A stretch of 64,000 bases of DNA, from positions 4,411-68,410 of the forward strand of contig JBIOKR010000002.1 of the NCBI GenBank assembly GCA_044451945.1. The letters run 5' to 3'. The notes beneath the pieces were generated by a model, which worked only from the letters and a program-made list of their open reading frames with translations, ran no database searches and was not told where the DNA came from. The DNA comes from Candidatus Lutacidiplasmatales archaeon. Lineage in GTDB: Archaea; Thermoplasmatota; Thermoplasmata; Lutacidiplasmatales; UBA184. Of the stretch, positions 7,033-27,707 are shown in pieces (within the stretch, counting starts at the first letter, position 1; each line of letters opens with the position of its first letter). The position numbers and the translations under genes are program-made.

Positions 7033-8145
7033 CTACGCACGGCTGGGGCGCCGGGCGAGGAGCACCCGGCCGCCGGTCGGGGCGGTCGTCTCCGGTTCCA
7101 CCGCCCGATTGACGGTGGTCTCGTTGATCACCACGAGCAGCGCGTGCCCGGTACCGAGCTCGGATAGGATCCGCTGGAATCGGGCCGCGTTCTCCCGGTC
7201 TCGGGAGCGTCCGATGAGCGAGCCGGAGAGCTCCGCGAGCTCCTGGGTCGCCGCGTGGACCCCCTCGAGGGCGTCGTCGGCCTCGCTCGCCGAGTTCGAG
7301 CTGAAAGCGCGCATCGTCGCCGTGAGCGTCGAGCTGAACCGGACGAGGAGTTGGCGGATCTCCTCGGCGTCCTTTCCCCGGGGGAGCTCGGCCGCCAGCT
7401 CCCGCCCGATCTTGGCGATCAGGTCCGCGATCACCTCGAGCATCTTGGCGACGAGCCGGTAGCCCATCTGGTAGTGGTGGCTCTGGACCCCGATCTCCCG
7501 TGCGATCTCGTGATCGTTGGCGGCCAGGAGGAGCTGGCGGGCCATCAGGAGGTAGAACCGGTCGACCTCCTCCTCGATGTTCGGGAGTTGACCGAGTAGC
7601 TGGGGGTCTGCGGTCTCGAGAGAGCGGGAGCAGACCTCGAGCTCGAGCTCGATCATGCGGACGACGCGGCTCTGCAGGCTCGAGAGCCGATGCTTGCTCG
7701 CATCGAGGAAGACCCGCACCTCGAGACGACGGGGCTCCTCCTCCACGAGGCTCATGCCGAGGATGCGGTGGGCGACCTCGGCGACCTTGGCGCGGACCTC
7801 GGGGGAGAGGTCGCTGCGGGCGGTGATCAGGATGCGGTCGTTGCCGGTGATGTACGCCCCGATGAGGAGTCTCGGAAGCAAGCTGGGCGTCGCGTCGCTC
7901 GCGTCGATCTGAAGGATCTTGAGATGCTCGGGGGAAGTGGCGCGCCCGGTCGCGATGGACAGCTCGAGGCGACCGTCGCCCAGGTCCCTGAGCTCGATCG
8001 GAGTCCCGGTCACTACCCCATGAGAACCGGTCCACGCCTTCGGGAGGGTGACGGCAAGCGAAGTGCGGCCGGTCCTCTGCACCCTTCGGACGTTCGTCTC
8101 TTGTTCCTTCGAAGGGAGCTCCGCGGCTTCGCTGGCGAGCATCAC
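7033..8145 (-). CDS. AbrB/SpoVT-PhoU fusion regulator (phosphate uptake regulator-like), paralog 1
   Basis: N-terminal swapped-hairpin motif RRVQRTGRTSLAVTLPKAW, followed by two PhoU-like helical repeats. Confidence 0.8.
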   Translation of the reverse strand: MMLASEAAELPSKEQETNVRRVQRTGRTSLAVTLPKAWTGSHGVVTGTPIELRDLGDGRLELSIATGRATSPEHLKILQIDASDATPSLLPRLLIGAYITGNDRILITARSDLSPEVRAKVAEVAHRILGMSLVEEEPRRLEVRVFLDASKHRLSSLQSRVVRMIELELEVCSRSLETADPQLLGQLPNIEEEVDRFYLLMARQLLLAANDHEIAREIGVQSHHYQMGYRLVAKMLEVIADLIAKIGRELAAELPRGKDAEEIRQLLVRFSSTLTATMRAFSSNSASEADDALEGVHAATQELAELSGSLIGRSRDRENAARFQRILSELGTGHALLVVINETTVNRAVEPETTAPTGGRVLLARRPSRA

Positions 8146-8376
8146 GGGGAACTTCCCGGTCCAGAGAATAAGGAGCAGGTCAGGCGGAGTTGACGAGGTG
8201 GTTACTCCCTGGGCTCCTTGCGCTCCTTACGCCAAGGAGGGTACCCACTTGCCACCCCTCTCCCTAATCCTCCCCAAGGAGGCGACCATGGAGACAACTC
8301 TGAGCCGAGGGGCCGAGACGCAGCCGAACGCACTAGGAGGGGGCCGATAGGCCGACCTTCCGAGGAGAAGAGACCG

Positions 8377-9153
8377 ATGTTTATCGATAACCTCGCCCTG
8401 ACCGAAGCGCTCCTACTCTTCGCCGCCGCCGTGCTCACGTACGTGGGGCTCACCGCCTGGTGGGCGATGCGAAAGAACGATGTCGAAAAGGTGAAGGCGG
8501 CGATCCGAGGCGGCGCGGGCCCCGTCGGGGCGGTCGGCGTCACCGCGGTCGTACTAGGCTTCTGGTCGGAAATGGTGTGGCCGTACCCTTCGGTGATGGG
8601 CGGCTACAACATCCTGTTCAACGACATCACGGTCGTCTTCGGCATCGTGATGGTGTCGTTCGCGGCCGTGGCGTACCTCCACCTACGCCTGCAGTACGTC
8701 GGGGTCCTGGCGTTCATGGCCGGGGCCGTGACCGTGCTCTACGGATGGACCGCCTACGGATTCCACTACACCAAAGAGCCGTTCGACTTCCTCCTCCTCT
8801 ACCTGGGATTCGGAGCCGCGGGGATCTTCTCGCTGCCGGCCACGGCGATCGTGGACCACTACCTCGAGAACGTCTCGAAGAGCGACACCCTCTGGCGCAC
8901 CGACTCGAGCAGCGTTTCGACCCGCCGGTTCCTCGGGATCCGGGCGGTCGCCAAGTTCGCCGGTTCCACCACCTCTAACGACAGCGAGGCTTCGGGAGAC
9001 GGAGGCGCTCCCAAGCTCGCGTTCCGGATGCCGCTGTACTACCACGTGATCCTGCTGGCGTTCCCCCTGTTCATGGCGCTTGCCGGCTTCGCCGCGTGGT
9101 GGTTCCTCGGCACCACGATCCCGGGTCATTTGACCCCGGGACAGACCCCCTGA
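8377..9153 (+). CDS. Multi-pass membrane protein (archaeal DUF981-like), paralog 1
   Basis: ATG 8377 inside ORF 8218..9153. About 6 TM helices. Paralogous to 26973..27707, sharing TAYGFHYT/TAWYGYWGYT and a C-terminal PGHLT motif. The DUF981 family name is recalled, not verified. Confidence 0.65.
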   Translation: MFIDNLALTEALLLFAAAVLTYVGLTAWWAMRKNDVEKVKAAIRGGAGPVGAVGVTAVVLGFWSEMVWPYPSVMGGYNILFNDITVVFGIVMVSFAAVAYLHLRLQYVGVLAFMAGAVTVLYGWTAYGFHYTKEPFDFLLLYLGFGAAGIFSLPATAIVDHYLENVSKSDTLWRTDSSSVSTRRFLGIRAVAKFAGSTTSNDSEASGDGGAPKLAFRMPLYYHVILLAFPLFMALAGFAAWWFLGTTIPGHLTPGQTP

Positions 9154-10492: not shown

Positions 10493-11509
10493 ATGGAGGG
10501 TCGAAAGCTGCAATTGGCGGGAGGTTCGACGTACGTCATCTCGCTGCCCAAACGCTGGGTGACGCACGCCGGGCTCAAGGCGGGCGACACCCTGTTCGTC
10601 GACACCGAGGCGGACGGGGCGATCTCGGTCCGCTCGCAGGCCGCCACGAAACCGGCGGTCCGTCGCAAGGTCTTCGAGGAGAAGGGCGAGGAGGCCCGGG
10701 AGCACCTCCTTCGCAAGCTGATCGGGGCGTACATCTCGGGGTACGGGCTTATCGAGATCCGTTTCTCGGCCGACAGAGGCCCGTTCGTCCGCCGTGTCTC
10801 CCGGGACTTCTGCCGCCTCGTGGTGGGGCCCGAGGTCGTCGAGGAAGGGCCGAACGCCCTCCTGATCCAGGACCTCTCCGATTCCTCCGAGCTCAGCACG
10901 GAGAAGTGTCTGCGCCGGATGCACCTCGTGGTCCGCGCCATGCTCGACGACGCGATCGTCGCGCTGCGGACGGGCCGCGCGGCGCTCGCCCACGACGTGG
11001 TCCAACGGGACCAGGACGTCGACCGCCTCTACTGGATGGTCGCCAAGCAGTACCACCTCACGCACACCGCCCCCGGGCGGGCGACCGACGGGGAGGCCGT
11101 GGCGGCGATCCACGCCCACCGGCTCGTCGCGAAACTGCTCGAGCGGATCGGCGACCACGCCGAGCGCATCGCGGGCACGTTCTCGACGATTGTCGAAGGA
11201 AAGGTGATCGATTCGAAGCTCGGAAAGGACCTGGAGGAGGCGAACGCCTCTGCGATCGCCATTCTCGACAAGGCGTTCCGGGCCCTCGTGACGGGGAACA
11301 TCGACCTCGCCAACGAGGCGATCGACGCCCGGGGCCCGCACCAGAAGCTCATAGACACGCTCTCGCACCGGGTCGCGACCCGCAAGGGCGAGGAGCTGCT
11401 CGCCCTGGGAGCGGTCGTCGACAGCCTCGGACGGACCGCGAGCTATGCCACCGACATCGCCGAGCAAGCGATCAATCTCGCCGTCCTTCAGGACGGAAAG
11501 CCGTCGTAG
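10493..11509 (+). CDS. AbrB/SpoVT-PhoU fusion regulator, paralog 2
   Basis: N-terminal LQLAGGSTYVISLPKRWV (AbrB swapped hairpin), followed by PhoU repeats. TATA-like 'accatatatg' sits about 40 nt upstream. Confidence 0.8.
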   Translation: MEGRKLQLAGGSTYVISLPKRWVTHAGLKAGDTLFVDTEADGAISVRSQAATKPAVRRKVFEEKGEEAREHLLRKLIGAYISGYGLIEIRFSADRGPFVRRVSRDFCRLVVGPEVVEEGPNALLIQDLSDSSELSTEKCLRRMHLVVRAMLDDAIVALRTGRAALAHDVVQRDQDVDRLYWMVAKQYHLTHTAPGRATDGEAVAAIHAHRLVAKLLERIGDHAERIAGTFSTIVEGKVIDSKLGKDLEEANASAIAILDKAFRALVTGNIDLANEAIDARGPHQKLIDTLSHRVATRKGEELLALGAVVDSLGRTASYATDIAEQAINLAVLQDGKPS

Positions 11510-11519
11510 CGCCCGGGGA

Positions 11520-12536
11520 TCAACGCGGGGACGCTTTCGCCCGGATCTCCGGGGTCGCCGGAAGTGAGGCGAGGCTCGGGGGGGCCTGGGGGAGAATCTT
11601 CGGTACGGCGCCCGAAGTGTCGAGCGTCGTCGTGGGGGGTATCGCCGCAGCGACCGTATCGGCGTCCACCCGGTAGGCGCGGTGCTCCACCGCGTATTCG
11701 AGCGCCCGGTCGGCGAGCTCCACGAGGCGTCTCGGGTTGGCCTGAGCGGCCGAGTTCAGCGCCGCCGCCGCATCCCGGTCGTACGGATAGAGCGGGTCGA
11801 GGTTCTGCACGATCCGCTTGGCGAGCAACTTCTTGGCGAGGAGGAGTGCCGCCTCGTCGATCGACAGGGTCGGCAGGAGGAACGTCCGGTTGATCCGGGA
11901 GCTGAGCGCCGGGTAGTTCGCGCCGAGCGTGACGAGAAAGCTCGGGGTGCAGCCGAACATCACGAGCGCCCCGGGCTTGAGCTCATCGCCGAGCTCCTGC
12001 AGGGCCTTGACGAACAGGTCGGAGTCCGGCATCTTCGCGACGTTCTGGAGATCGTTCAGGAGGAGGAACGACGGCGCGTTCATGTTGAGGGCGGCCGCGA
12101 GGACGTGCCCGGCCTGCCCCGGGTCGTACTTGCCGTCCTTCGACTTCTCGAGGGCGGTCAGCTGACGGTACCACGCCGGGGGGTTGAAGATCTTCGCGAA
12201 CCCCTTGAGATTCTTCGCGGCTTGGAACTCGTGGGCCAGGAGGGGCATGGTCAGGCCGGCTTTCTCGGGGACGTCCAGGTAGACGCAGTAGGCGCCCCGG
12301 TCCTTCGCCTGCGCCTGGGCGAGCCGAAGGCGGTGGGTCTTGCCGGTCCCCAGGCTGCCCACCAGCGCCACCAGGGCCTTGTTCTCCTTCTCGAGGACCT
12401 CGTCCTTGATGGTGTTGAGCGACTCGTCGATCTGAAGGTCGACGTGGAAGACCTCGATGTCCTCGAGGCTGTCGCTCGTCAGGTCTCGGAACGGGTTTCC
12501 CGTGAGACCGTATCGCTCGTACGAACCGCCCGGCAT
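11520..12536 (-). CDS. P-loop NTPase (AAA+-like), function unknown, in operon with the KaiC/FlaH-like gene
   Basis: Walker A GSLGTGKT and Walker-B-like LLLNDL. It lies 14 nt downstream of 12551..13180 on the same strand. Confidence 0.55.
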   Translation of the reverse strand: MPGGSYERYGLTGNPFRDLTSDSLEDIEVFHVDLQIDESLNTIKDEVLEKENKALVALVGSLGTGKTHRLRLAQAQAKDRGAYCVYLDVPEKAGLTMPLLAHEFQAAKNLKGFAKIFNPPAWYRQLTALEKSKDGKYDPGQAGHVLAAALNMNAPSFLLLNDLQNVAKMPDSDLFVKALQELGDELKPGALVMFGCTPSFLVTLGANYPALSSRINRTFLLPTLSIDEAALLLAKKLLAKRIVQNLDPLYPYDRDAAAALNSAAQANPRRLVELADRALEYAVEHRAYRVDADTVAAAIPPTTTLDTSGAVPKILPQAPPSLASLPATPEIRAKASPR

Positions 12537-12550
12537 CGAACCACCCGGAC

Positions 12551-13180
12551 CTACAGCACGCGCCGCCGCAGGTCCATCGCCATCCGTGTGCCATCAAAGT
12601 CATAATACACATTTCGGTCGACGAACTGCCCGTCGATCCATTTGGGAATTCGCAGGAAGCGGACGAGCCCCTCGGGCCCCTCCTTCGAGTGGAACTGGAC
12701 CACCCCATCCGAGAGATGGTTGGTCACCGCCTCGGCCCCGGGAGTGTGGATCCCGCGGTCCGTGGCGAGGAGCACCGTGGTCCCGTGCTCCCGGCAGAGG
12801 CCGCGCAGCCTCCGCATGAGACCGGCGAGGTCGGGCGTCTCGAGCTCGAGCGTGAGCATGGTGAACGAATCGAGCGCGAGGACGCCGTCCGAGCCAGCGA
12901 ACCCCTTGAGGTCGCGCAGCTCGTCGCGCTCCGAGATGTTCAGGCGCTGTGCCGCGTCGCCCGAGGGAACGCCCTCCCGCCGGAAGAGCGCCTCGACCTC
13001 GTCCCGCCCGCGGGTGGTGACGAACGAGACGCCCCCGTCCTGCCGCAGCGCGCTCAGGCAGAGCCTTCGCAGGAAGTAACTCTTGGCCGGATCCGGGCCG
13101 CTCTCGGCGACGAGCACCTGGCCCCCCCGGATCGTGGGGATGAGCGTGTCGAGGCCCGGGAGGTCGATCGGGATGTCCAT
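12551..13180 (-). CDS. RecA-superfamily KaiC/FlaH(ArlH)-like protein with degenerate Walker A
   Basis: Layout matches FlaH/KaiC (LDTLIPTIRGGQVLVAESGPDPAKSYF...VLALDSF). The P-loop is ESGPDPAKS rather than GxxGxGKS. Confidence 0.55.
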   Translation of the reverse strand: MDIPIDLPGLDTLIPTIRGGQVLVAESGPDPAKSYFLRRLCLSALRQDGGVSFVTTRGRDEVEALFRREGVPSGDAAQRLNISERDELRDLKGFAGSDGVLALDSFTMLTLELETPDLAGLMRRLRGLCREHGTTVLLATDRGIHTPGAEAVTNHLSDGVVQFHSKEGPEGLVRFLRIPKWIDGQFVDRNVYYDFDGTRMAMDLRRRVL

Positions 13181-13297: not shown

Positions 13298-14134
13298 ATG
13301 CGCCCGGTCCGTTCGAACCGCCGCGGGCTCTCCGAGATCGTCGGAACGCTCTTTCTCGTCCTCATCGTCGTCGGGGCGGCGACCGCGTTCGCCGCCTTCG
13401 TAGCGGGCTACCAGAAGCAGCTCCAGGCGGAGCAGCAGGCCGCGCACGAGAGGGCCCTCGAATCGATCCGGGTCCTCCACCTCACCCCGACCCCGAACGG
13501 GACTTCCGGGACCTGGGGGTGGCTCAACTTCTCCCTGGCGAGCCTCGACGTCAATCCGATCATCGTGACGAGCATCTCCGTGAACGACAACCCTGTGGCC
13601 AAGTACAACGTGAGTGGCCTCAACCTCTCGACCGGTACCTTCTGGAGCCAGACCGTCCTGGCCGGCGGGTACCTCTCGCTCTACCCCCGCGAGGCGTTCT
13701 CGGTGAACGTCAGCACCGCGAAGGGGCCGGCCCGCTCCGGTTTCTACGACCCCAACCTCACACTTTCTACCTCGAGCTATCTCAAGGTCGAGCTGTTCAC
13801 CTACAACAGCAACGCGTTCACCCAGACGTTCATCCCGCCGTCCGCGGTCGCCTCGATCAACTACCTGCAGACGTACAACGGCACCAACATCACGAACATC
13901 CCGGTGCTCGATGGGAGCAGCTCGTTCCAGCCGGGCAACGCGACGCTCGTCGCCTGGATCTGGACGGTCCATGAGAGCGCCCCCTCCGTCAAAACCTGGG
14001 GGCTCTCCGGGGAGAAGGTCGAGATGAGCAACCTCACCCGGGGCGGCTCGTACACGGTCGGACTCACTGTCGCCAACTCCGACGGGCTGCTCGGCCTGCT
14101 CAACCCGGCGCTATCGTTCGTCTATTCCGGGTGA
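13298..14134 (+). CDS. Class III signal peptide (type IV pilin/FlaF-G-like) secreted protein
   Basis: N-terminus MRPVRSNRRGLSEIVGTLFLVLIVVGAATAFAAFVAG matches the archaeal prepilin-like processing region. A coiled segment and a sequon-rich beta-rich domain follow. Confidence 0.55.
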   Translation: MRPVRSNRRGLSEIVGTLFLVLIVVGAATAFAAFVAGYQKQLQAEQQAAHERALESIRVLHLTPTPNGTSGTWGWLNFSLASLDVNPIIVTSISVNDNPVAKYNVSGLNLSTGTFWSQTVLAGGYLSLYPREAFSVNVSTAKGPARSGFYDPNLTLSTSSYLKVELFTYNSNAFTQTFIPPSAVASINYLQTYNGTNITNIPVLDGSSSFQPGNATLVAWIWTVHESAPSVKTWGLSGEKVEMSNLTRGGSYTVGLTVANSDGLLGLLNPALSFVYSG

Positions 14135-14161: not shown

Positions 14162-15595
14162 TCAGGCGAAGTAGAGGAAGGCAACGATCGTCACGATGAG
14201 AAGCACGATCGAGTGGGTGAGGCCGTACCGGGCCTTCCCCTCGGTGAACGCCCCGATGATGATTCCGGTGCCGATCGAGTTGATCATCATCAGGTCGAAG
14301 AATCGCTGCTCGAGGGTGCCGAACGCCAGCTTCGGGATCGCGGCGGTTCCGCCGCTCTTGATGGAGGAGAGGGGGTTCCCTCCACCCCCCGAGAAGAAGG
14401 TGAGGCTGACGCCCCCCAAGGAAGGGGCGATGCTGAGCAGCGAGAAGAGGACGGCCATGAGCACCCCGAAAGCCACGTAGAGGACGGCGATCGGAAGGAC
14501 GAGCGCGTTTCGGCGCTCGAGGTCGATCTTGATGAAATCGTCCAAGTCCTTCGCCGCCCGATGGATGACCGACGCGGTCTCGCCGCCGATCGTGGAGGCA
14601 TCGGCGATGAGCTCGGCGTAGCGCGTGATGAGCGGGCTCTTCATCGGCACCGCCATGTTGCGGAGCACCTGGTCGAACGGTCGTCCGATGCGGACCCCGT
14701 CGGCCGCCACCTTGAGCGGCTTCTTCAGGATGTCCTGGTGCGTGGTCGACAGCTCGAGCAGGGCCTTGGCCGGGTCGAGCCCGCCCCGCATGGCGTCCGC
14801 CATCTCGAACAGGAATTGGGCGAACGAGCGCTCAAAGGCCCGCAGCCGGGTGAGCTCCCGGTTCGAGTCGACGGTGAACGCCGTGATGGCCACGAAGAAG
14901 CCCGCGATGACGACGTACTCGGGCGCGAGCAGGGGGAGCCCCGGGGTGCGAAGGACGTAGGTGAGTCCAAAGAGGATGACGAACACCGCGATGATCAGCG
15001 GGACGACGAGGACGAGGTACTCCTTGTTGACCGGGTGCGTGGCGAAGTACTTGTAGAACGCGAACCGCCGGGTGCGCTTGATGTAGAGGATGTACCCGCC
15101 GAACGCCCCGAGGCAGACCACGGCGCCGAGCGCGATGTCGATGACCACGCCTTCGAGGTTGAAGGAGAGCAGTGGACCCGAGGAGGAGCCCCCTGCGACG
15201 GTCGCGAACCCGAAAGAGATCTCGTTCGTGTGTCCGCTCGTGTCCGAGACGCTGATGTTGACGGTGTTGTTCCCGGAGCGCAGCTTGAAGATCGACGGGA
15301 CCTGGTAGGAGAGCTCCTTCGCCGAGATCCGCACGCCGTCGAAGCTCGTGACGTTCACGCCGTTGACGACGATGAAGACGCTCCCGGGATCGATGGTGCC
15401 GTTCGCATCGGAGTAGGTCACCGTGATGTTCGGCGTGAGGGTGTCGATCTGGGACCCGGGCAACGGGGAACTCGGCGTGATCGTGATCGGATTGGCGCTC
15501 GACTGCGCACCCCCCCCGGCGGCGATCGGTCCGGCGAGGAGGAGCCCCAGCGCAGCGATCAGCAGGAGGCTCGCGAGCTTCCTCACCGCGCTCAC
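14162..15595 (-). CDS. FlaJ/TadC-like polytopic membrane protein (T2SS-F domain) with an N-terminal signal peptide and ~150-aa extracellular domain
   Basis: Signal peptide LLIAALGLLLAGPIAAGG, then a sequon-rich soluble domain, then TM helices and a T2SSF-like region. Its start overlaps the upstream TadB-like gene by 4 nt. Confidence 0.6.
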   Translation of the reverse strand: MSAVRKLASLLLIAALGLLLAGPIAAGGGAQSSANPITITPSSPLPGSQIDTLTPNITVTYSDANGTIDPGSVFIVVNGVNVTSFDGVRISAKELSYQVPSIFKLRSGNNTVNISVSDTSGHTNEISFGFATVAGGSSSGPLLSFNLEGVVIDIALGAVVCLGAFGGYILYIKRTRRFAFYKYFATHPVNKEYLVLVVPLIIAVFVILFGLTYVLRTPGLPLLAPEYVVIAGFFVAITAFTVDSNRELTRLRAFERSFAQFLFEMADAMRGGLDPAKALLELSTTHQDILKKPLKVAADGVRIGRPFDQVLRNMAVPMKSPLITRYAELIADASTIGGETASVIHRAAKDLDDFIKIDLERRNALVLPIAVLYVAFGVLMAVLFSLLSIAPSLGGVSLTFFSGGGGNPLSSIKSGGTAAIPKLAFGTLEQRFFDLMMINSIGTGIIIGAFTEGKARYGLTHSIVLLIVTIVAFLYFA

Positions 15596-16548
15596 TCCGC
15601 CCTTCCGTAGGCCATCGAGATCGCGATCGAGGTCGCCGCCACGGCGGCCGGCATGAGACCGTACGTGAGGAGCAGGAGGAGCTCGTTCGCGTCGAGGCCG
15701 GCGGCCGTGCTCCCGAATGCGTTCAAGAGGAACGCCGCGACGGCGATCATCAGGACGCCGACCATCACGAGGCTCACGTACATGTCGACGAACGTCTGCA
15801 GGCGGACGATGAACTCCTTCTGGGCGTCGCGCTTGAGCTTGAGGACGTCCCCGGACTTGGTGCGCAGGTACTCGTCGAGGTCGCCCCCCTGGTGGATCAT
15901 GTTGGCGAGGTCCCAGAGCGATTCTCGAAGGGACGGGGAGGGGGACTCCTTCGCCGTCTCGGCGAGCGCGGTGATGAGGTCCTTTCCCTGGATGTCCGTC
16001 TTGTAGACGATCCGCTTGAACTCCCCGGTCATCTGCGGATCGTGGCGGCGGTTGGCCATCCGACGGACAAGCTCGATCGGGGACATGCCGGTGCTCGCCA
16101 GTACGGACAGCTCGCTCAGCGTGAACGGGAGCTCGCGCTCGAGCTGCGTCTTCCGGTTCGCGATGCGGGTGCTGACGATCGACTGGAAGGCGAGGAGCGT
16201 CGCACCGACGCCGACCAGGGTGATCAGCGCGACGTAGCCGTACCAGAAGGAGACGTGGATGAGGACGGTGAACAGGAAGAGCCCGACCGCCAATACGCCG
16301 ATCCCGGCGATCATCGCCGTGATCAGCATCTCGGCGTAGTGGAGGCCGACGGAGATGTTCACCCCGGCCTGCTTGAGCTGCTCGGCGAGCGATTCCGATT
16401 TGATGCGCTTGTCGAGGCGGTCACCTAGGAGCCGGTAGCAAAAGGCGCGGTACGCCTTGACGAACTGGTCCTCGGAGGGGACCTTCGGCTTGGCGATCGT
16501 GGTCCCGGTCGAACTGACCGCTCCGGAGGCTTCGGCGGGCTCGTACAC
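15592..16548 (-). CDS. FlaJ/TadB-like membrane protein (T2SS-F domain), first half of a split PilC/FlaJ
   Basis: Cytoplasmic helical domain plus TM segments typical of GspF/TadB. Starts 7 nt after the ATPase gene. Confidence 0.6.
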   Translation of the reverse strand: MYEPAEASGAVSSTGTTIAKPKVPSEDQFVKAYRAFCYRLLGDRLDKRIKSESLAEQLKQAGVNISVGLHYAEMLITAMIAGIGVLAVGLFLFTVLIHVSFWYGYVALITLVGVGATLLAFQSIVSTRIANRKTQLERELPFTLSELSVLASTGMSPIELVRRMANRRHDPQMTGEFKRIVYKTDIQGKDLITALAETAKESPSPSLRESLWDLANMIHQGGDLDEYLRTKSGDVLKLKRDAQKEFIVRLQTFVDMYVSLVMVGVLMIAVAAFLLNAFGSTAAGLDANELLLLLTYGLMPAAVAATSIAISMAYGRAE

Positions 16549-16554
16549 GCTCCC

Positions 16555-18378
16555 TCAACTGGCCGCGACCCGGTGCTCCAGGTCGCGAATCGCCCCGGCG
16601 GAATCGATGTAGTAAGAGGCGATCGCGCGGCTCACCTCCTTGAAGTACGAAAGATTCAGCTGGTTCATGAGCTCCAGATAGTGGGCCTTACCGTCCATCG
16701 ATTCCCTGAGCTCGGTGGCAGTGCGCCCCGAGGCCTTGGCGACCTTCTCGAGGACGAAGCTGCGGCCGAGCCAGTCGAACGCGTCCCGGACCGGGTCCCA
16801 CCGGAACACCTCGTTCGTCAGGAGCTCGTTCGTCGCCGCGTCGACCTCGAGGACCTCGGTGATCGTGGTGACGCGACGCACCCGGAGGTCCCGGATCGCC
16901 ACCTGGGCGGGGAAGGCGACCGTGTCCAGGGCCTGGAAGAGGACCCGGGGGATGTTCATCGGCTCGTTTTCCACCCGGTGAAGAAGCTCGCCGATCGAGC
17001 CCGCGTGCACGGTCGACATCGACGCGTGGCCCACCGAGATCGCCTGGAAAAGTGTGAACGCCTCCGCGCCCCGGACCTCTCCCACGATCACGTACTCCGG
17101 GCGCTGGCGCAGCGCGGCCACCAGAAGGTCGAACAGGGTGACGCTGCCCGGGGCCTTGAGCGCCGAGGCGCGGCCCGTGATCCCCGAGACACCGGAAGCG
17201 CCGGCGCCCATGCCGTAACCCGACCGGGCGATCGACTGGATCCAGTTCTCATGGTCGATGTGGATCTCCGGGGTGTCCTCGATCGAGACGATCTTGTCCT
17301 CCGGCCGGATGAACATGCTGATGGCGTTCAGGAGCGTCGTCTTGCCGCTCGCCGTTCCCCCCGAGATCAGGATGGAGCGGTGATTCTCGATGAGCGTCCA
17401 GAAGTAGGCGAGCTGCGCGGGGGACATCGAGCCGAAGCGCATCAGGTCGATCGGGGAGACCGGGTCTTGGGCAAACTTCCGGATGCTGAAGGTGGAGCCC
17501 TTGCGCGTCACCTCCGTCCCGAGGGTCAGGTTGACGCGGCTTCCGTCACGCAGCGTCGCGTCAAGGATCGGCTGGTAGATCGATACGTGCTTCCCTGAGA
17601 TCTGGGCGAGCCTCAGTACGTACTTGTTGAGCTCGAACTCGCTTCCGTACTGTACATTGGAACGAATAGAGCCGAAGACCCGGTGAAAGACGTAGAGCGG
17701 CACCTCGGGCCCGAGGCAGCTGATATCCTCGAGGAACGGGTCACGCATCACCGCGTCCGCCCGTCCCATCCCGACGAAATCGCGTTGGAGGTAGTACATC
17801 ATCACCGGGCGCCGACGCGGCGCCACGTCGATGTCGTAGAGGTCGAGGACGGTGAGGAACCGGCTGTCCAGGTACTTCCGAAGCTCCGGGGACTGGTCGA
17901 GCCCGATGCGCCCGACGACGGGGAGCTCCTCCTGCCCCATGATCACCTCCATCTTGTCCCGGATGGCCGAGATTTTGGCGGACTCGCCCTCGTGGAGCGT
18001 CGGTTCGAGGCAGGTGTACATCCACTCTTCCGAATCGGTATCGAAAGCGATGTGCACGAAGGCGTACGGCGGATTGACCGGATAGGTGACGTTCACCTTC
18101 CGACGGTCGCCCAGAAGTTGCCTACGCATGTAGCCGATCTCGGAGGCGACCAGTACCTTCTCCGAGAGCAACGGCCGCCGGGTGTAGAGGGCGTCGAGCT
18201 TCGCCGATTCCTGTAGCAGCGTGGCCCGGTCCTTCGGCAGGAGCTTGCGGCGCACCGAACGGGCTAAGGCGAGGGGGGAGCCCGTCGAACGATGCCCAAT
18301 TGACGCCTTCGAATCGGCACTCCCGGCCACGTCGCCGAGATACCGGAACGCTCGGTTAAGCGGACCCCACGGAATCAC
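16555..18378 (-). CDS. FlaI/PilB/GspE-family secretion ATPase (607 aa)
   Basis: Walker A GGTASGKTT, Asp box VSIEDTPEI, Walker B/His box ...PEYVIVGEVRGAEAF...VGHASMSTVHA. A Gly/Ser-rich insertion (SGYGMGAGASGVSGITGRASALKAPGS) precedes the TLFDLL helix. Confidence 0.85.
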   Translation of the reverse strand: MIPWGPLNRAFRYLGDVAGSADSKASIGHRSTGSPLALARSVRRKLLPKDRATLLQESAKLDALYTRRPLLSEKVLVASEIGYMRRQLLGDRRKVNVTYPVNPPYAFVHIAFDTDSEEWMYTCLEPTLHEGESAKISAIRDKMEVIMGQEELPVVGRIGLDQSPELRKYLDSRFLTVLDLYDIDVAPRRRPVMMYYLQRDFVGMGRADAVMRDPFLEDISCLGPEVPLYVFHRVFGSIRSNVQYGSEFELNKYVLRLAQISGKHVSIYQPILDATLRDGSRVNLTLGTEVTRKGSTFSIRKFAQDPVSPIDLMRFGSMSPAQLAYFWTLIENHRSILISGGTASGKTTLLNAISMFIRPEDKIVSIEDTPEIHIDHENWIQSIARSGYGMGAGASGVSGITGRASALKAPGSVTLFDLLVAALRQRPEYVIVGEVRGAEAFTLFQAISVGHASMSTVHAGSIGELLHRVENEPMNIPRVLFQALDTVAFPAQVAIRDLRVRRVTTITEVLEVDAATNELLTNEVFRWDPVRDAFDWLGRSFVLEKVAKASGRTATELRESMDGKAHYLELMNQLNLSYFKEVSRAIASYYIDSAGAIRDLEHRVAAS

Positions 18379-18558: not shown

Positions 18559-19998
18559 ATGAGAGAAGGAAGAATTCGAAAGATCGTCGCGATTCGGCGG
18601 GCCCGCCTTCGGCGGGATGCGCTGGCCGTGTCGCCGGTGGTCGCCACGTTGATCTTGATCCTCGTGGCGGTCGCGGCGGCGGCCGCGCTGTACCTGTGGC
18701 TCGTGGCATGGCAAGGGAACGTGACGAACGGAGTCGGAACCCCGGGCGCCCAGACGACCCTCTACATCGGCGGTAGCTCGTCGGTGTACCCCTGGTCGCA
18801 GAAGGCCGTGGCGTGGTTCGAACAGAACCAGTCGGATGTCGCGATCAGCCTGAACCAGGGCGGAAGCGGCGCCGGTATGGCCGCGGTCTGCTCGGGCCAG
18901 GTTGACATCGGCGCGTCCTCTTCGCCCCAGACGTTCAGCGCCTTGACGGCGCAATACGGTTGCCCGCAGACGGTCGTCCAAGAGACGGTCGCCTACGACG
19001 CGGTCGACGCGATTGTCCCGTCAGGTAACGTCCACGGACTCGTCAGCATCAGCTGGGACACGATGCAGGCCGTCTACGTCGCCGGCGTCGGGGGAGCCCC
19101 CGTCCCGGTCCAGGCACAGACCAACCTTCAGTCCTCGTCCACCTACGCGATGGACGGATCGGCGATCACCGGCTTCGCGGGCTACGCCGCCCCGGCCGCG
19201 AGCGGGTTCGCGTGGGACCAGATCCCCGCGTGCTCGATCCCCACCGTGGCCACTACGTGCGTTGGCACGACCAATGAAGCCGTGAACGCGGGCGGAATCG
19301 CTGCGGGCGTCACCGCCGCATGCGGTGGAACGTACGCCGGTCCGGCCCTCTGCTACACGGTCGCGGGTTCGCCCTGCGGGTTTGTAGTCTGCGCGGGCGG
19401 AACCGGTGCCGGTACCGCCGCGGGCCAGAACGGAGCGACGATCCACGCCTGGCAGCGCCAGGACTCGGGCGGAACGACCCAGTCGTTCACCGCGCGGCTC
19501 CTCGGCGTGGGCACGTCCTCGGCCGCCTCGACCGCCTCGGTCGGGTTCGGCGGATGCGCCCCCACTGGCCAGCTCACGGACTGCGGGATCGCCGGCTCCC
19601 ACCAGGGATTCGGTAACCCCGGCGTGATCTCCGGCGTCTCCGGAGACAAGGACGGTCTGGGCTACGCGTCGGACGGCCTCGTGGTCGCGTCCGGCTCGGG
19701 CGTGGTCGCGGTGGCCTTCCAAGGAATTGGACAGGCGAGCCCGGTCTTCCCGACGGTCGCATCGACCATCGTCGCGGGCATCGTTGCGGGCAACGGCGGA
19801 ACGTACGGGGCCAACACCTACATCGGCTGGCGCCCGTTCATCTACGTCGAGGAGAAGGCCCCGACGGGTGAGGCGCTCCGGTATCTGCAGTACGTCATGC
19901 AGCCGGGCACCAACCAGGACATCGCCCTGGCCTCGAACGAGCTCAGCCCCTTCCAGCCGGGTCTGGCGGGCCACGTGCCGGTGACACCGATTCCGTAA
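18559..19998 (+). CDS. PstS-like phosphate-binding periplasmic-domain protein with an N-terminal archaeal type IV pilin-like (class III signal) segment
   Basis: N-terminus RRDALAVSPVVATLILILVAVAAAAALYLWL resembles pilin_N (AVSPVIGVIL..). It is followed by YIGGSSSVYPWSQKAVAWFEQNQSDVAISLNQGGSGAGMAAVCSGQVDIGASS, which is the PstS signature. A purine-rich 'aaggaggaagg' lies upstream. Confidence 0.65.
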   Translation: MREGRIRKIVAIRRARLRRDALAVSPVVATLILILVAVAAAAALYLWLVAWQGNVTNGVGTPGAQTTLYIGGSSSVYPWSQKAVAWFEQNQSDVAISLNQGGSGAGMAAVCSGQVDIGASSSPQTFSALTAQYGCPQTVVQETVAYDAVDAIVPSGNVHGLVSISWDTMQAVYVAGVGGAPVPVQAQTNLQSSSTYAMDGSAITGFAGYAAPAASGFAWDQIPACSIPTVATTCVGTTNEAVNAGGIAAGVTAACGGTYAGPALCYTVAGSPCGFVVCAGGTGAGTAAGQNGATIHAWQRQDSGGTTQSFTARLLGVGTSSAASTASVGFGGCAPTGQLTDCGIAGSHQGFGNPGVISGVSGDKDGLGYASDGLVVASGSGVVAVAFQGIGQASPVFPTVASTIVAGIVAGNGGTYGANTYIGWRPFIYVEEKAPTGEALRYLQYVMQPGTNQDIALASNELSPFQPGLAGHVPVTPIP

Positions 19999-20139: not shown

Positions 20140-20526
20140 ATGTCGATATGCGTGGACATGGCTACGTCGATCAGGGGTGGGAGGGTGCTCGACGAGCGCC
20201 TGGCCCGGCTCGGCGGAGAAGACGAGCTCTGCTGTGTGCCGGAGTATCGGGGTCTCGCCAGGGCCGTCCGGGAGTCGGAAGGATTCCCCGCGAGCCTGAA
20301 ACGGGCCAAGGCGCTCGCGGACGAGCACCGCCTTCTCGCGGTCGCACTTCTCAAGCGCCGCAAGGAGCTGTGCGCCTGCGAGATTCAGGCCGCTACCGGT
20401 CTCAGCCACGCCACCGTGAGCCACCACATGCGTGTCCTCGTCGATGCGGGCCTCGTAGAGGAACGCCGGCAAGGGAAGTGGATGTACTATCGACTGGCCG
20501 AGGGAGCCAGGGAGAACTTACCATGA
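20140..20526 (+). CDS. arsR: ArsR/SmtB-family metalloregulator
   Basis: ELCACEIQAATGLSHATVSHHMRVLVDAGLV carries the wHTH and metal-binding Cys. The start may instead be 20158. Overlaps arsM by ATGA. Confidence 0.8.
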   Translation: MSICVDMATSIRGGRVLDERLARLGGEDELCCVPEYRGLARAVRESEGFPASLKRAKALADEHRLLAVALLKRRKELCACEIQAATGLSHATVSHHMRVLVDAGLVEERRQGKWMYYRLAEGARENLP

Positions 20527-21317
20527 CGAAGAAGCAGGGAAATCTGGGCATCAACGAGGAGAGGCACGGCGCGGTCCGAGAGCGATACGGCGGCATCGCC
20601 GAAACTGGTGGATGTTGCGGCACCGGCTCCCCGGGCAGCTGCTGCGGGGACGCATCGGTCTCTTCCGAGCTCGGCTATAGCGCGAAGGAGCTCGAGAGCC
20701 TCCCGGAAGGTGCCAACCTGGGCCTGGGCTGCGGCAATCCGACGGCGCTCCTCGCCCTGAAGCCGGGGGAGGTCGTCCTCGACCTCGGGAGCGGCGCGGG
20801 GATCGACTGCTTCCTCGCGGCGAAGAGGGTCGGCGCCAAAGGCCGCGTCATCGGGGTCGACATGACGCCCGAGATGCTCTCGAAGACGCGGGAGAACGCC
20901 CGCAAGGGCGGATACAGGAACGTCGAGTTCCGGCTCGGGGAGATCGAGCACCTGCCGGTCGCCGACGGGTCCGTCGACGTCGTGATATCGAACTGCGTCA
21001 TCAATCTCGCCCCCGAGAAGGGTCCCGTCTACCGGGAGGCGTACCGGGTCCTCCGCGAGGGGGGGCGGTTCGCCGTCTCGGACGTCGTCGCGACTCGGCC
21101 GATCCGGGCCGCCGACCGGGCGAACCCCGCGCTCTGGAGCGCGTGCTCCTCGGGAGCGCTCGAGGTCAAGAAGGTAAAGTCGCTCCTTCGCGAGGCAGGT
21201 TTCGACAAGGTCGAGATCGAGCTCGCCCGGGGCACCGACACCCCGAGCTCCCTCAAGGACCAGGCATCGCTGGGGGTCGTGTCCGCCAGCATTCGCGCCA
21301 CCAAGACCGGGGGGTGA
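20523..21317 (+). CDS. arsM: Arsenite S-adenosylmethionine methyltransferase
   Basis: Cys-rich N-terminus (GGCCGTGSPGSCCGD) and SAM motif VLDLGSGAGID; C-terminal Cys present. Confidence 0.8.
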   Translation: MTKKQGNLGINEERHGAVRERYGGIAETGGCCGTGSPGSCCGDASVSSELGYSAKELESLPEGANLGLGCGNPTALLALKPGEVVLDLGSGAGIDCFLAAKRVGAKGRVIGVDMTPEMLSKTRENARKGGYRNVEFRLGEIEHLPVADGSVDVVISNCVINLAPEKGPVYREAYRVLREGGRFAVSDVVATRPIRAADRANPALWSACSSGALEVKKVKSLLREAGFDKVEIELARGTDTPSSLKDQASLGVVSASIRATKTGG

Positions 21318-21325
21318 GGCGGAAG

Positions 21326-21775
21326 ATGACTCGCACGGTCCTGTTCATTTGCGTCGAGAACGCCGGCCGCTCCCTCATGGCGGAGGCGATGTTCAACGCC
21401 CACCCTCCCGCCGGCTGGCACGCCATCTCGGCGGGGACCCAGCCGGCCTACGCACCGAACCCGAGGACGGCCACGATGCTCCAGGAGATCGGGCTCGAGA
21501 TCCCGGCCCATCCGCCGACCTTGCTCACCAACGATATGATGACCGAGGCAGGGGCCCGGATCACGATGGGCTGCCTCGACAGCGAAAGCTGCCCGGCGAG
21601 GCTCAAGACCCTCGAGGTGACGGACTGGGCGCTTCCCGACCCCGCGAAACTGGACGACGCCGGCTTCCGGGCGGTCCGGGACGACCTCGCCCGGCGGGTC
21701 GAGGGGCTCTCCCGGGATCTCGCCCTGCGCGACCGGATGCGGCCGCAGTTCGGTAGAAGGGAAACTCCGAGTTGA
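21326..21775 (+). CDS. arsC: Arsenate reductase, LMW protein-tyrosine-phosphatase family
   Basis: VLFICVENAGRS is the CX5R P-loop of LMW-PTP-type ArsC. Confidence 0.75.
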   Translation: MTRTVLFICVENAGRSLMAEAMFNAHPPAGWHAISAGTQPAYAPNPRTATMLQEIGLEIPAHPPTLLTNDMMTEAGARITMGCLDSESCPARLKTLEVTDWALPDPAKLDDAGFRAVRDDLARRVEGLSRDLALRDRMRPQFGRRETPS

Positions 21776-22425
21776 CGCGCCCGCTCCTCGAGCGCTGCGC
21801 CGCTGAGGCGGCCGGAACGTTCCTCCTCGTCGGGATAGGGACCGGAGCGATCGTCGCCGCGGCCAACGCCGGGGGCGTGTCCCAGTGGGTGATGGCCATC
21901 GCGTGGTTCGGGGCGGTCGCGCTCCCCGTCCTGGCGTTTGCGTTCGTGAGCGGCTCCCACATCAACCCGGCGGTCACCCTGAGCCTCGTCGCCGCGCGCC
22001 GATTTCCCCCGAGGGAGGCCCTGCCGTACGTCGGGGCGCAGCTCGTCGGTGCCTTTGCGGGCAGCGCCGTAATTTGGCTCGTCCTCGGGAACGCGGCCCA
22101 CCTGGGGGCCACCCTGCCGAGGAACGGGAACCTGCTCGCGACCTTCGCCCTCGAGTTCGCCTTCACCGCCCTGCTCATACTGACCGTGATGTTTCTCAGC
22201 ACCCCCGGAAAGATCCCCTCGCGATGGGAGCTGCTGCTCCCGGCGGGCGCTGTCGGGCTCTCCACATGGCTCATCGGACCCTGGACCGGCAGTTCCCTCA
22301 ATCCGGCGAGGACCGTCGCCCCGGCGGTGCTCTCGGGGGACTACGCCGGGATCTGGGTCTACTTCCTCGCCGTACCTCTGGCGGCGCTCGCCGTCGCCGT
22401 CACGTTCCGCAAGGCGGCGCCGTAG
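21772..22425 (+). CDS. MIP-family aquaglyceroporin (putative arsenite channel, AqpS-like)
   Basis: Two NPA boxes (HINPAV, SLNPAR) and 6 TM helices. TTG start overlaps the arsC stop (TTGA). Confidence 0.8.
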   Translation: MTRPLLERCAAEAAGTFLLVGIGTGAIVAAANAGGVSQWVMAIAWFGAVALPVLAFAFVSGSHINPAVTLSLVAARRFPPREALPYVGAQLVGAFAGSAVIWLVLGNAAHLGATLPRNGNLLATFALEFAFTALLILTVMFLSTPGKIPSRWELLLPAGAVGLSTWLIGPWTGSSLNPARTVAPAVLSGDYAGIWVYFLAVPLAALAVAVTFRKAAP

Positions 22426-26331: not shown

Positions 26332-26972
26332 CGGGACCGCGCCGGGCCGATCGGTCAACTGCGGTTGAGCGGGGTGCGGCCGCGGGGAAACGCCTGCGGG
26401 GCCGACTCCTCCTGGCACGAGGGGGCCCGCGCAGTGCCGCGTGCCGTCGGGGAGGGCGAGGAGGGGAGGTGACGAGATTCGTGATCTCCGAGTCGGCCGC
26501 GCGGACCCGGGGGGGCTCGCGACCGCGTGGAGCGCGAGGAGCCGAGCCTCGATGCGTGGGAGAGTCCTGTCAGGGCCGAGAGGGTCGTGGCGGCACTGCA
26601 GATGATTCCCGGTGTTGCGCCGGGGTCGACCTCCGTTCGCAGGGAGGTCTGGATTATCGGAGACGAACCTCCTCCGGGGCGGGCGCCCTCCCGGCCGTCC
26701 GAGCACCGGACCGCTGCCTCCCGCTCGGACCGGCACCCTGAGGAACCCCGAATCCCGCCCCGGCAGCATCGAGTCGGGGCGGGCGAACAGCCGGTCGGCA
26801 GTCAGGCGGTGTTCATCGCCGCGATTTTCGACGCGACAGCGCGACGATCGGGATCCCACCGGAGTCTCCACCGTACCGGTGCGGTGGTCGAGCGCGATTG
26901 ACTTCCAGCTTATCCACTGAGTCCCTCCTGCCCGACTCAAGGGGTCCAAGCGGCCCCGAATTGGAGGAGAAC

Positions 26973-27707
26973 ATGGCTTTCACGCCGTTCGTGGACGACT
27001 TGGGCTTCATCGTCGCGCTGATCTTGGCCGCCGCCGGAGTGTTCACCTGGGTCTCGGTCCGGGCGTTCCTCGCGATCTTCCGGAACGACCCGAAGGCGTT
27101 GCGCGGGATCCTCAAGACATCGGCGGTCCCGGTGGGCACCATTGGGGTCACCAGCCTTCTCATGGGGCTCTACACCGAATTCACCTGGCCGTTCCTGCTC
27201 TCGGACGGACTGGGCTCGTATGACATCTTCTTCGGCGACGTCCTGATGATCTTCGCGATGGTGATGATCGTCTACTCGGTCGTCGCCTTCTTCGGCCTCA
27301 AGCTCGAGTACGCCGGCCTCTTCGCCCTCATCGGCGGGACGACCACCGCCTGGTACGGCTACTGGGGGTACACGACCCTCGTCAAGCCCGGCGTCCTCGG
27401 GCTGACGAAGGACCCTCTCGAGACCTTCCTCCTCTACCTCGCCTTCGCGGCCGCGGGCTTCTTCGCGCTCCCGGCCAGCCTCGCGGTCGACTGGTACCTC
27501 GAGCACCCCGGGCCGACCTGGACACCGTTCAGGTTCGCGCTCCGTCCGGTGGCGGAGATGACGGCGCCGGTCGAGGGGAGGTTCAAGCTTCCCATTTCGT
27601 TCTACCTGGCGACCGTCTGGTTCCCCCTCTTCGCCTTCTTGGCGTTCGTCGCAGCGTGGTTCTACATGGGGTCGATCCTTCCGGGTCACCTCACCAGCCC
27701 GCCCTGA
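26973..27707 (+). CDS. Multi-pass membrane protein (DUF981-like), paralog 2
   Basis: ATG 26973 inside ORF 26898..27707. Shares motifs with 8377..9153 (…LPGHLT at the C-terminus). Confidence 0.65.
   Translation: MAFTPFVDDLGFIVALILAAAGVFTWVSVRAFLAIFRNDPKALRGILKTSAVPVGTIGVTSLLMGLYTEFTWPFLLSDGLGSYDIFFGDVLMIFAMVMIVYSVVAFFGLKLEYAGLFALIGGTTTAWYGYWGYTTLVKPGVLGLTKDPLETFLLYLAFAAAGFFALPASLAVDWYLEHPGPTWTPFRFALRPVAEMTAPVEGRFKLPISFYLATVWFPLFAFLAFVAAWFYMGSILPGHLTSPP

Follow-up and report, generated by a model that had tools for sequence, protein, structure and literature searches.

We studied whether or not two neighbouring genes of an uncultured archaeon encode a type IV filament platform that carries a domain on the outside of the cell. 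The genes lie in a 64,000-nucleotide (nt) stretch of DNA from a Candidatus Lutacidiplasmatales archaeon (assembly GCA_044451945.1, contig JBIOKR010000002.1, positions 4,411 to 68,410; in the following called the window, with positions counted from its first letter). Of the core parts of type IV filament machines, the platform proteins are understood least; they are usually drawn as membrane helices with cytoplasmic bundles and with almost nothing on their outer face. The locus raises two questions, i.e., whether the two genes are true halves of one platform, and whether the N-terminal extension of the second half is exported. We consider it likely that the genes encode the halves of an archaeal type IV pilus-like platform and that the second half presents a Sec-exported immunoglobulin (Ig)-like ectodomain with a possible contact role on the outer face.

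Gene structure of the platform operon

Three minus-strand genes are arranged head to tail (16555..18378, 15592..16548 and 14162..15595). The operon's first gene encodes the assembly ATPase (16555..18378; T2SSE/ArlI-like, 607 amino acids (aa), Pfam T2SSE E 5e-33). It is followed by platform half 1 (15592..16548; 318 aa) and platform half 2 (14162..15595; 477 aa, or 474 aa if the start is the GTG at 15586). A T2SSF profile search finds exactly one domain in each half, as the original prediction had proposed. That is, PF00482 is matched by residues 144-270 of half 1 (15739..16119, minus strand; E 9.2e-14, 51.9 bits) and by residues 261-387 of half 2 (14435..14815, minus strand; E 2.9e-12, 47.1 bits), with a cutoff of 25.2 bits for both. 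No second T2SSF or T2SSE locus is present within the 64-kb window. Given their codon-position GC pattern (GC content of 0.93 at third and 0.41-0.44 at second positions; genome 67% GC), both halves are real genes with a strong coding signal.

The junction of the halves reads ...GCG GAG TGA GCG CGG TGA GG.... An overlap by ATGA at 15592..15595 had been proposed here; bases 15595..15592 actually read GTGA. Among 60 related junctions, two classes are found, namely '...gaaTGA...' and '...gagTGAnnnnnATG...'. In the '...gaaTGA...' class, the start is the overlapping ATG, which gives MR.../MK..., and in the other class it is an ATG 5 nt past the stop, where the window has a GTG (gagTGAgcgcgGTGagg). 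Since the window junction belongs to this latter class, with GTG replacing ATG, half 2 likely starts at 15586 (MRKLASLLL..., 474 aa), i.e., 9 nt downstream of the ORF start. A Shine-Dalgarno-like GGCGGAG is located ahead of this GTG and covers the final two sense codons of half 1. The two halves are tightly coupled whichever start codon applies. The overlap proposed together with the coupling is lost if the start is at 15586, which leaves a 5-nt gap instead.

N-terminal module of half 2

The layout of half 2 was derived from hydropathy and an AlphaFold2 (AF2) model, which agree; the model was built on 38 homologues and has a mean predicted local distance difference test (pLDDT) score of 76.9. 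Predicted are a hydrophobic helix (residues 2-20), a low-confidence linker (21-35), a seven-stranded beta-sandwich (37-132, pLDDT 84-89), a low-confidence G/S-rich linker (134-146), a membrane helix (147-177), a basic loop (173-190; KRTRRFAFYKYFATHPVNKE) and two further membrane helices (191-216 and from 224). The T2SSF bundle extends to residue 364 and is followed by a membrane helix (366-393), a disordered loop (394-421) and the last two helices (425-452 and 455-476).

The N-terminal residues 1 to ~29 (15509..15595, minus strand) form a candidate Sec-type signal peptide, judged from the n/h/c organisation by inspection and from AF2. That is, a positive n-region is followed by 16-19 hydrophobic residues, the small-residue stretch AAGGGAQS and a hydrophilic segment. 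The same organisation is seen in 37/38 aligned family members, the remaining one being without the N-terminal part, which agrees with the Sec-type signal peptide originally proposed for the downstream gene. Nearly all family N-termini start with M-R/K, continue with a hydrophobic run of 12-18 residues and then show small residues, with varying length; no other part of the protein is conserved as poorly as this segment (28% pairwise identity vs. 76% for the T2SSF domain). Being short, variable in length, least conserved and followed by small residues, it fits a disposable targeting signal, and we infer a cleavable Sec (class I) signal peptide. A twin-arginine translocation (Tat) signal was rejected due to the absence of a conserved twin-arginine motif, and a lipoprotein signal because no lipobox cysteine is present. 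Inspection of the family alignment revealed no class III motif in half 2 N-termini.

Residues 36-133 (15197..15490, minus strand) are predicted to form an Ig-like beta-sandwich of about 100 residues, as suggested by AF2, Foldseek and the Pfam matches of homologues. When compared with the Protein Data Bank (PDB) by Foldseek, the sandwich alone is matched, best by CopC (5icu, E 8e-5, target template modelling score 0.70), followed by PKD, Rib and similar Ig-like domains. Some homologues score above the Pfam cutoffs for Big_13, Big_7, Big_5 or CopC. The domain holds five N-x-S/T sequons (N56, N65, N81, N109, N113), and the window protein has none elsewhere. The original prediction of a sequon-rich soluble domain is thus retained, while its extent (~150 aa, residues ~25-170) has to be reduced to about 120 aa (27-146), with the first helix from ~147.

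A CopC-like copper site was considered for the window protein and rejected, since there is no histidine near the predicted mature N-terminus. In about 20 of the 38 family members, a single histidine is located near the predicted cleavage site (alignment residues ~20-40; A|HP, D-HP, S-HP). With CopC as the best structural match, a copper-type N-terminal histidine site is conceivable in these relatives of half 2. The idea of the ectodomain as a copy of a pilin head was likewise dropped: when compared with the two pilin-like proteins described below and the window's open reading frames (ORFs) of >=80 aa, the Ig profile found only itself.

The ectodomain is connected to the remaining protein by an extra membrane helix (residues 147-172; 15080..15157, minus strand) located by hydropathy and covered by the AF2 helix 147-177. 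This helix is absent from minimal half-platforms (P0282, P0283), which show a basic cytoplasmic stretch and then two helices; examples are a 327-aa Methanoperedens-type protein (P0282) and a 452-aa Thermoplasmata paralogue. Judged by this sequence comparison, the window family appears to be a canonical core with an added signal peptide, Ig domain and one helix in front. Within the core, the glycine pairs G271-G272 and G337-G338 are invariant across the family.

Membrane topology

Next, we assessed on which side of the membrane the Ig domain is located. In terms of mean lysine plus arginine (K+R) counts across the family, the regions predicted inside are rich (4.9 in 18 residues for loop 173-190; 20 in 121 for the T2SSF region), while those predicted outside are poor (3.1 in 121 for the ectodomain; 0.2 in 8 for loop 216-223; 2.6 in 37 for loop 394-431). 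Therefore, the positive-inside rule is followed with the Ig domain outside. The same placement results from the number of helices, because three of them separate the Ig domain from the T2SSF bundle, which must meet the ATPase in the cytoplasm. Hydropathy, AF2 helices and positive-inside charges agree in predicting a polytopic protein with a cytoplasmic T2SSF domain.

Sequons are 21-fold enriched, with 3.9 per 100 aa in the Ig domain vs. 0.18 in the remainder across the family. Recurrent are N81 and N109, and the sole recurrent one elsewhere (position 397) is in the other predicted outside loop. Based on these predictions, the Ig domain of half 2 is probably outside the cell, and it is probably N-glycosylated. 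The extracellular placement in the original prediction is thus backed by charge distribution, sequons and helix count alike.

Conservation of the split

To obtain related loci, a scan with one genome per species was used, which provided 80 loci encoding half 2 relatives (34-65% identity). All are from metagenome-assembled genomes (MAGs) of Thermoplasmata, Thermoplasmatota or Methanomassiliicoccales, with the exception of one bin labelled Woesearchaeota. For synteny statistics, only loci whose contig extends far enough to show the respective neighbour were counted. The half 1 gene is immediately upstream of half 2 on the same strand in 64/64 loci, with no fusion in any, and the ATPase gene is ahead of half 1 in 56/56. 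The N-terminal module of half 2 is matched in 72/73 loci and is present in about 31 representative clusters at 50% identity.

The frames of the two halves differ in most loci, an in-frame stop lies between them in some, and the junction ranges from a 4-nt overlap to a 36-nt gap (gaps of 1-36 nt). Beyond these loci, more than 120 full-length homologues are found for each half, with lengths of 311-324 aa (half 1) and 457-505 aa (half 2). Programmed frameshifting that fuses the halves would be topologically viable; it was rejected given the variable junctions, the in-frame stops and the lack of a common slippery site.

In four loci from MAGs with 'MFD' isolate names (L008, L016, L039, L052), some on very long contigs, tblastn matches fall apart into adjoining pieces. 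This affects half 1, the ATPase or the PstS-like gene described below, with a frame shift in L008 and L016. These broken genes look like assembly indel errors and call for caution in gene-structure arguments.

Correspondence to single-chain platforms

We compared both halves with platforms that hold two T2SSF repeats in one chain. Half 1 matches the N-terminal parts of ArlJ (8-209 of 555, E 4e-17), UpsF (40-223 of 484) and BasF (141-340 of 656). Half 2 matches positions 284-414 of the 484-position UpsF profile (E 1.2e-3, weak) as well as the C-terminal halves of 26/28 proteins of ~600 aa among its hits. By sequence, half 1 thus appears equivalent to the N-terminal and half 2 to the C-terminal repeat of single-chain platforms. 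We dropped the label 'fused half 1 + half 2' for the ~600-aa proteins, since the half 1 profile fails on their N-terminal halves. From hydropathy, half 1 is predicted to have a cytoplasmic N-terminus, two transmembrane helices, the T2SSF domain and another two transmembrane helices.

The downstream gene had been introduced as the 'TadC-like half'. Here, the term is a positional label only, since by homology this gene corresponds to the C-terminal repeat. The label is questionable because the best alignment of bacterial TadC is with the N-terminal repeat according to Denise et al. (PMC6668835).

It had also been assumed that archaeal platforms are normally single polypeptides. This does not hold, and the split is not unusual, because two-gene archaeal platforms are already described (PMC4858521, PMC6668835, PMC12448462). 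Makarova et al. (2016) report two tadC-like genes for many loci of the euryarchaeal clades 1 and 2 and for several clade 4 systems; in their arCOG tables, TadC families of half the size, with 4 and 5 membrane helices, are listed (PMC4858521). Denise et al. (2019) describe two platform genes with one T2SSF each for bacterial Tad and Epd-like archaeal pili, read as gene fission (PMC6668835). In a 2025 study of a Thermoplasmatales pilus, cdiPF is divided over two separate genes, the first resembling the N-terminus of AapF and the second its C-terminus (PMC12448462). Furthermore, a 2026 preprint lists two-gene platforms in systems 1, 4A and 4B. The split platform is thus already known in archaea, and our locus adds nothing new in this respect.

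Ig domains in related proteins

The next most similar half-platforms (~385-465 aa) are without the N-terminal module and have a Big_1-like Ig domain past the last helix. These C-terminal domains support the topology described above because the same model puts that C-terminus outside. An example is a Thermoplasmata MAG (L081; GCA_030041295.1, JASHOD010000014.1, 1088..3323) in which an ATPase gene is followed by those for half 1 (290 aa) and half 2 (452 aa). This half 2 has a Big_1 Ig-like domain with three sequons after its last membrane helix and none at the N-terminus. Both ends are occupied in two further proteins of 1163 aa (P0298) and 628 aa (P0300), which have N-terminal Ig arrays plus a C-terminal Big_1 domain.

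Multi-Ig proteins of ~1000-2400 aa contain tandem repeats with 30-35% identity to the platform's Ig domain. Seven proteins (P0285, P0293, P0295, P0310, P0312, P0319, P0332) hold 5-12 tandem copies of the Ig repeat. Such a large tandem multi-Ig build is the architecture of surface adhesins. The large multi-Ig proteins may be the source of the platform's Ig domain or its binding partners.

Proposed working of the platform

Our reading is firm with respect to gene structure, domain content, conservation and fold prediction, while the pairing as a heterodimer, the cleavage of the signal peptide, the glycosylation and especially the ectodomain's function are inferred. By analogy with TadB/TadC (CpaG/CpaH), halves 1 and 2 would pair as a heterodimer equal to one two-repeat protomer. 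In the published model, CpaG and CpaH stand back to back as a heterodimer and span two subunits of the hexameric ATPase via conserved glycines at helix tips (PMC11300603). In the same way, the two cytoplasmic helical bundles might dock on neighbouring subunits of the hexameric ATPase, and the membrane helices would form the site that lifts class III-processed pilin-like proteins out of the membrane. Candidate substrates are the two proteins that are encoded on either side of the operon and start with an archaeal pilin N-terminus.

The signal peptide would export the Ig domain, and the extra helix would return the chain to the cytoplasm such that the orientation of the core is unchanged. On its ~12-residue linker to the extra helix, the Ig domain would sit at the platform's outer mouth near the filament exit. 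There, it could provide an outer-side contact, either to the filament base or subunit head domains, or as an anchor to the glycoprotein envelope like ArlF/ArlG. Such an outer-face contact point would be the most likely role of the ectodomain, and we put any single partner for it at well under even odds.

Alternative explanations

The split could in principle be an assembly or sequencing frameshift within one true FlaJ-like gene, given that the window is a single metagenome-derived sequence and that breaks resembling frameshifts within genes occur in the few related long-read MAG loci mentioned above. We regard this as practically negligible: the boundary is identical in all 64 independent loci, with mostly different frames, in-frame stops and variable junctions, the database homologues of each half (>120) are half-size, and a start codon with its Shine-Dalgarno-like GGCGGAG and a signal peptide is found exactly at the boundary. 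The single-base error that would restore one FlaJ ORF, whose check had been advised along with the original prediction, can thus be set aside. The two genes could also be independent platform paralogues, of which each would homo-oligomerise with the ATPase and perhaps serve pilin-like substrates different from those of the other. This would fit the lack of detectable pairwise similarity between the halves, the unequal (~2:1) expression of the two halves in Cuniculiplasma RNA-seq data (PMC12448462) and the loss of one Tad platform gene in some Actinobacteria (PMC6668835). Still, we find it quite improbable, since both genes are adjacent and tightly coupled in every one of the 64 loci, since they correspond to the N- vs. 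C-terminal halves of single-chain platforms, as fission predicts, and since the model of their bacterial equivalents is a heterodimer (PMC11300603).

For the N-terminus of half 2, an uncleaved hydrophobic segment has to be weighed against the signal peptide. It would be a signal anchor, i.e., a seventh membrane helix of half 2, and the Ig domain a large first extracellular loop. The topology fits equally well (N-terminus in, helix, Ig domain out, helix), residues 2-20 are helical in AF2, and signal peptide cleavage is only inferred. We consider a signal anchor unlikely, albeit with a chance that should be kept in mind. In most members, the hydrophobic stretch is short (~12-18 residues); the residues after it are small or break helices, as is typical of signal peptidase I sites, and the segment varies in length and reaches only 28% identity, compared to 48-78% for the true membrane helices. 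Either way, the Ig domain would be outside. That it is cytoplasmic, with the N-terminal stretch being no targeting signal, is extremely improbable: the core orientation would be inverted, and the T2SSF domain would be separated from the ATPase by lying outside. Further conflicts arise with the positive-inside distribution, the sequon enrichment, the homology to repeats of surface-adhesin-type multi-Ig proteins and the C-terminal Ig domains of the paralogues.

Some observations weigh against the reading of both genes as platform halves with an exported Ig domain. BLASTP and hhalign find no significant similarity between the halves, such that their kinship is visible solely through the Pfam T2SSF model. 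Half 2 matches a curated two-repeat model (UpsF) only weakly, with E 1.2e-3, and the half 1 profile misses the N-terminal halves of those ~600-aa proteins whose C-termini match half 2. A comparison of both halves with all PDB chains gave no solved relative by sequence at E<=1. For the Ig region of the window protein itself, Pfam scores are weak and below cutoff. Finally, the topology and the cleavage are predictions from hydropathy, charge counts, AF2 and a look at the signal-peptide-like N-termini. Taking all this into account, we maintain platform halves with an exported ectodomain as the likely reading.

Gene neighbourhood

The platform operon is part of a larger conserved block. Divergent from it, a plus-strand gene (18559..19998) encodes a 479-aa protein of PstS fold with a class III pilin-type N-terminus (Pfam PBP_like_2; NCBIfam PstS and pilin N-terminal domain). 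It is found in the same position beside the ATPase gene in 46/47 loci. The protein is listed as 'flagellin-like' by IMG and as PstS-family (Candidatus Lutacidiplasma) by NCBI. In 40 homologues, its N-terminus (...A|VSPVVATLILILVAVAAAAALYLWLVAWQG) is invariant from S25 to L48 except for V36, as are W51 and Q52; otherwise, these homologues are about 50% identical. The top 41 Foldseek PDB matches of its AF2 model are all phosphate-binding proteins. An R-x-D-x-S-G-G-T motif aligns with R135...S139-G140-T141 of E. coli PstS, with D56 not conserved; this alignment is meant as a lead only.

On the other side of the operon, a plus-strand gene (13301..14134) encodes a 277-aa pilin-like protein (Pfam Pilin_N; NCBIfam archaellin/pilin N-terminal domain, 19.4 vs. 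20 bits), present downstream in 64/74 loci with a conserved N-terminus. Next to it are minus-strand genes for a KaiC/RecA-like small ATPase (12551..13180; 209 aa; Pfam KaiC ATPase E 3e-4; NCBIfam FlaH E 7e-3, below cutoff) and an AAA_22-type P-loop protein (11520..12536; 338 aa; Pfam AAA_22 E 1e-5, slightly below cutoff). They are syntenic in 68/71 and 64/65 loci, respectively, the AAA_22 gene always being paired with the KaiC-like one; the orientation of the pair is inverted in more distant loci (~40% identity). The edge of the block is marked by an AbrB/SpoVT-PhoU regulator (10493..11509, plus strand; Pfam PhoU E 1.6e-22, with a MazE/AbrB-type N-terminal domain), which is syntenic in 45/63 loci. 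A second AbrB/SpoVT-PhoU fusion regulator is encoded at 7033..8145 (minus strand). Together with the PstS-like protein, the AbrB-PhoU regulators hint at control by phosphate.

One may thus ask what the block as a whole, i.e., PstS-like protein, ATPase, halves 1 and 2, pilin-like protein, KaiC-like/AAA pair and AbrB-PhoU regulator, is for. A speculative and rather unlikely answer is a phosphate-scavenging 'bindosome' of soil Thermoplasmatota. In it, a short filament or pseudopilus would carry an oxyanion-binding protein, and the Ig ectodomain would dock or gate the bulky 45-kDa subunits or tie the structure to the envelope. If true, the system would not be an ordinary adhesive pilus, and the platform's Ig ectodomain would be a lineage-specific feature. 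The bindosome idea was recently generalised in a preprint without mention of phosphate, and pili are not mentioned in the paper describing the order. Among the window ORFs scanned, we saw no ATP-binding cassette (ABC) transporter for the PstS-like protein. A cognate prepilin (class III) peptidase was not seen either, given that Peptidase_A24 is not matched among those ORFs, which cover neither every ORF of the window nor the rest of the genome.

Outside the block, 20140..22425 (plus strand) holds an arsenic-resistance-like cluster, judged by eye from translations. It comprises an ArsR-like regulator, an ArsM-like S-adenosylmethionine-dependent methyltransferase with cysteine pairs, a low-molecular-weight phosphatase/ArsC-like protein and an MIP channel with two NPA motifs. 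Two DUF981 membrane proteins are encoded on the plus strand, one just outside the conserved block (8218..9153) and one at 26898..27707.

Implications

What appears undescribed is an exported Ig-like ectodomain that is fused via an added helix to a C-terminal half-platform and is conserved across a large uncultured Thermoplasmatota lineage. We found no description of an ectodomain on an archaeal TadC/FlaJ-type platform in the searchable literature, in line with the original view of this feature as non-standard. The closest statement is from a 2026 preprint, which mentions 'extra loops' at the termini of haloarchaeal platform proteins.

Archaea are, to our knowledge, without the bacterial alignment and secretin complexes. 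Because a whole lineage bears an Ig domain predicted outside, with sister families showing one at the other outside terminus, our results suggest that functions of the outer face, e.g., the guidance of subunits, gating or envelope anchoring, can be assumed by the archaeal platform itself. For structural work, the Ig domain could serve as a handle, i.e., as a fiducial in cryo-electron tomography or as an outside epitope. The link of the platform machine to a pilin-tailed PstS-like protein may prove the more interesting lead.

Comparison with known systems

The closest known case is CdiPFa/CdiPFb from Cuniculiplasma divulgatum (Thermoplasmatales), which shares the phylum, the two-gene platform and the operon with an ATPase; again, the first gene corresponds to the N-terminal and the second to the C-terminal part of the single-chain AapF (PMC12448462). 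The CdiP pilus has been imaged (PMC12448462). CdiP differs in being Aap-like with two ATPases, and neither a signal peptide nor an Ig ectodomain on CdiPFb is mentioned in the paper, by whose description we compare (PMC12448462).

TadB/TadC (CpaG/CpaH) and EpdJ/EpdK are similar in having two adjacent one-T2SSF genes beside an ATPase gene, with a second ATPase of KaiC/FlaH-like or TadZ-like type in the locus (PMC6668835, PMC11300603). The window platform nevertheless does not appear to be specifically of the bacterial TadB/TadC type, as neither a TadA-type ATPase nor Flp-type pilins are found. That is, the window's ATPase scores far better with the archaellum/pilus ATPase model FlaI/ArlI, its top NCBIfam model (397 bits, below the 550-bit cutoff), than with the TadA-family model (150 bits; cutoff 373), and its pilin-like proteins have 277 and 479 aa, compared to the short Flp pilins of Tad. 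An Ig ectodomain on TadB/TadC was not found in the papers considered here (among them PMC6668835 and PMC11300603).

ArlJ/FlaJ, UpsF, AapF and BasF have in common with our halves the T2SSF repeats, the polytopic build, a VirB11/ArlI-type ATPase partner and substrates with class III signals. They are single chains of ~480-660 aa with both repeats, while the window system has two proteins plus a predicted exported Ig domain, and the NCBIfam scores of halves 1 and 2 are all far below the cutoffs of the single-chain platform families. An archaellum is not indicated: the platform is split, the ArlJ model reaches 62 bits vs. a cutoff of 550, and the FlaH match is weak. Furthermore, neither flanking class III-signal protein matches an archaellin model, with one matching Pilin_N/DUF7289 and the other PBP_like_2. 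The order Lutacidiplasmatales has been reported without archaellum genes (PMC9287336).

With respect to the ectodomain, the archaellum stators ArlF/ArlG are membrane-tethered beta-sandwiches on the outer face, which are thought to link the machine to the envelope (PMC12448462). Unlike the Ig domain of half 2, they are separate proteins with pilin-like N-termini, and Pfam scans of half 2 reveal no sequence similarity. The likeness would thus be a functional analogy only.

The Sulfolobales bindosome (BasEF) resembles the conserved block in combining a filament core with a substrate-binding protein of pilin-type N-terminus, here of PstS fold. The window's ATPase and platform do not appear to be Bas orthologues, given scores far below the cutoffs for BasE (169 vs. 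1000 bits) and BasF (21 vs. 1300 bits). While the sugar-binding proteins of Sulfolobales are encoded with an ABC transporter elsewhere, the window's binding protein is encoded beside the core in nearly all loci (46/47). The wider T2SSF platform superfamily is where the two halves belong: each has a T2SSF domain, the T2SSE ATPase gene adjoins, and two class III-signal proteins flank the operon.

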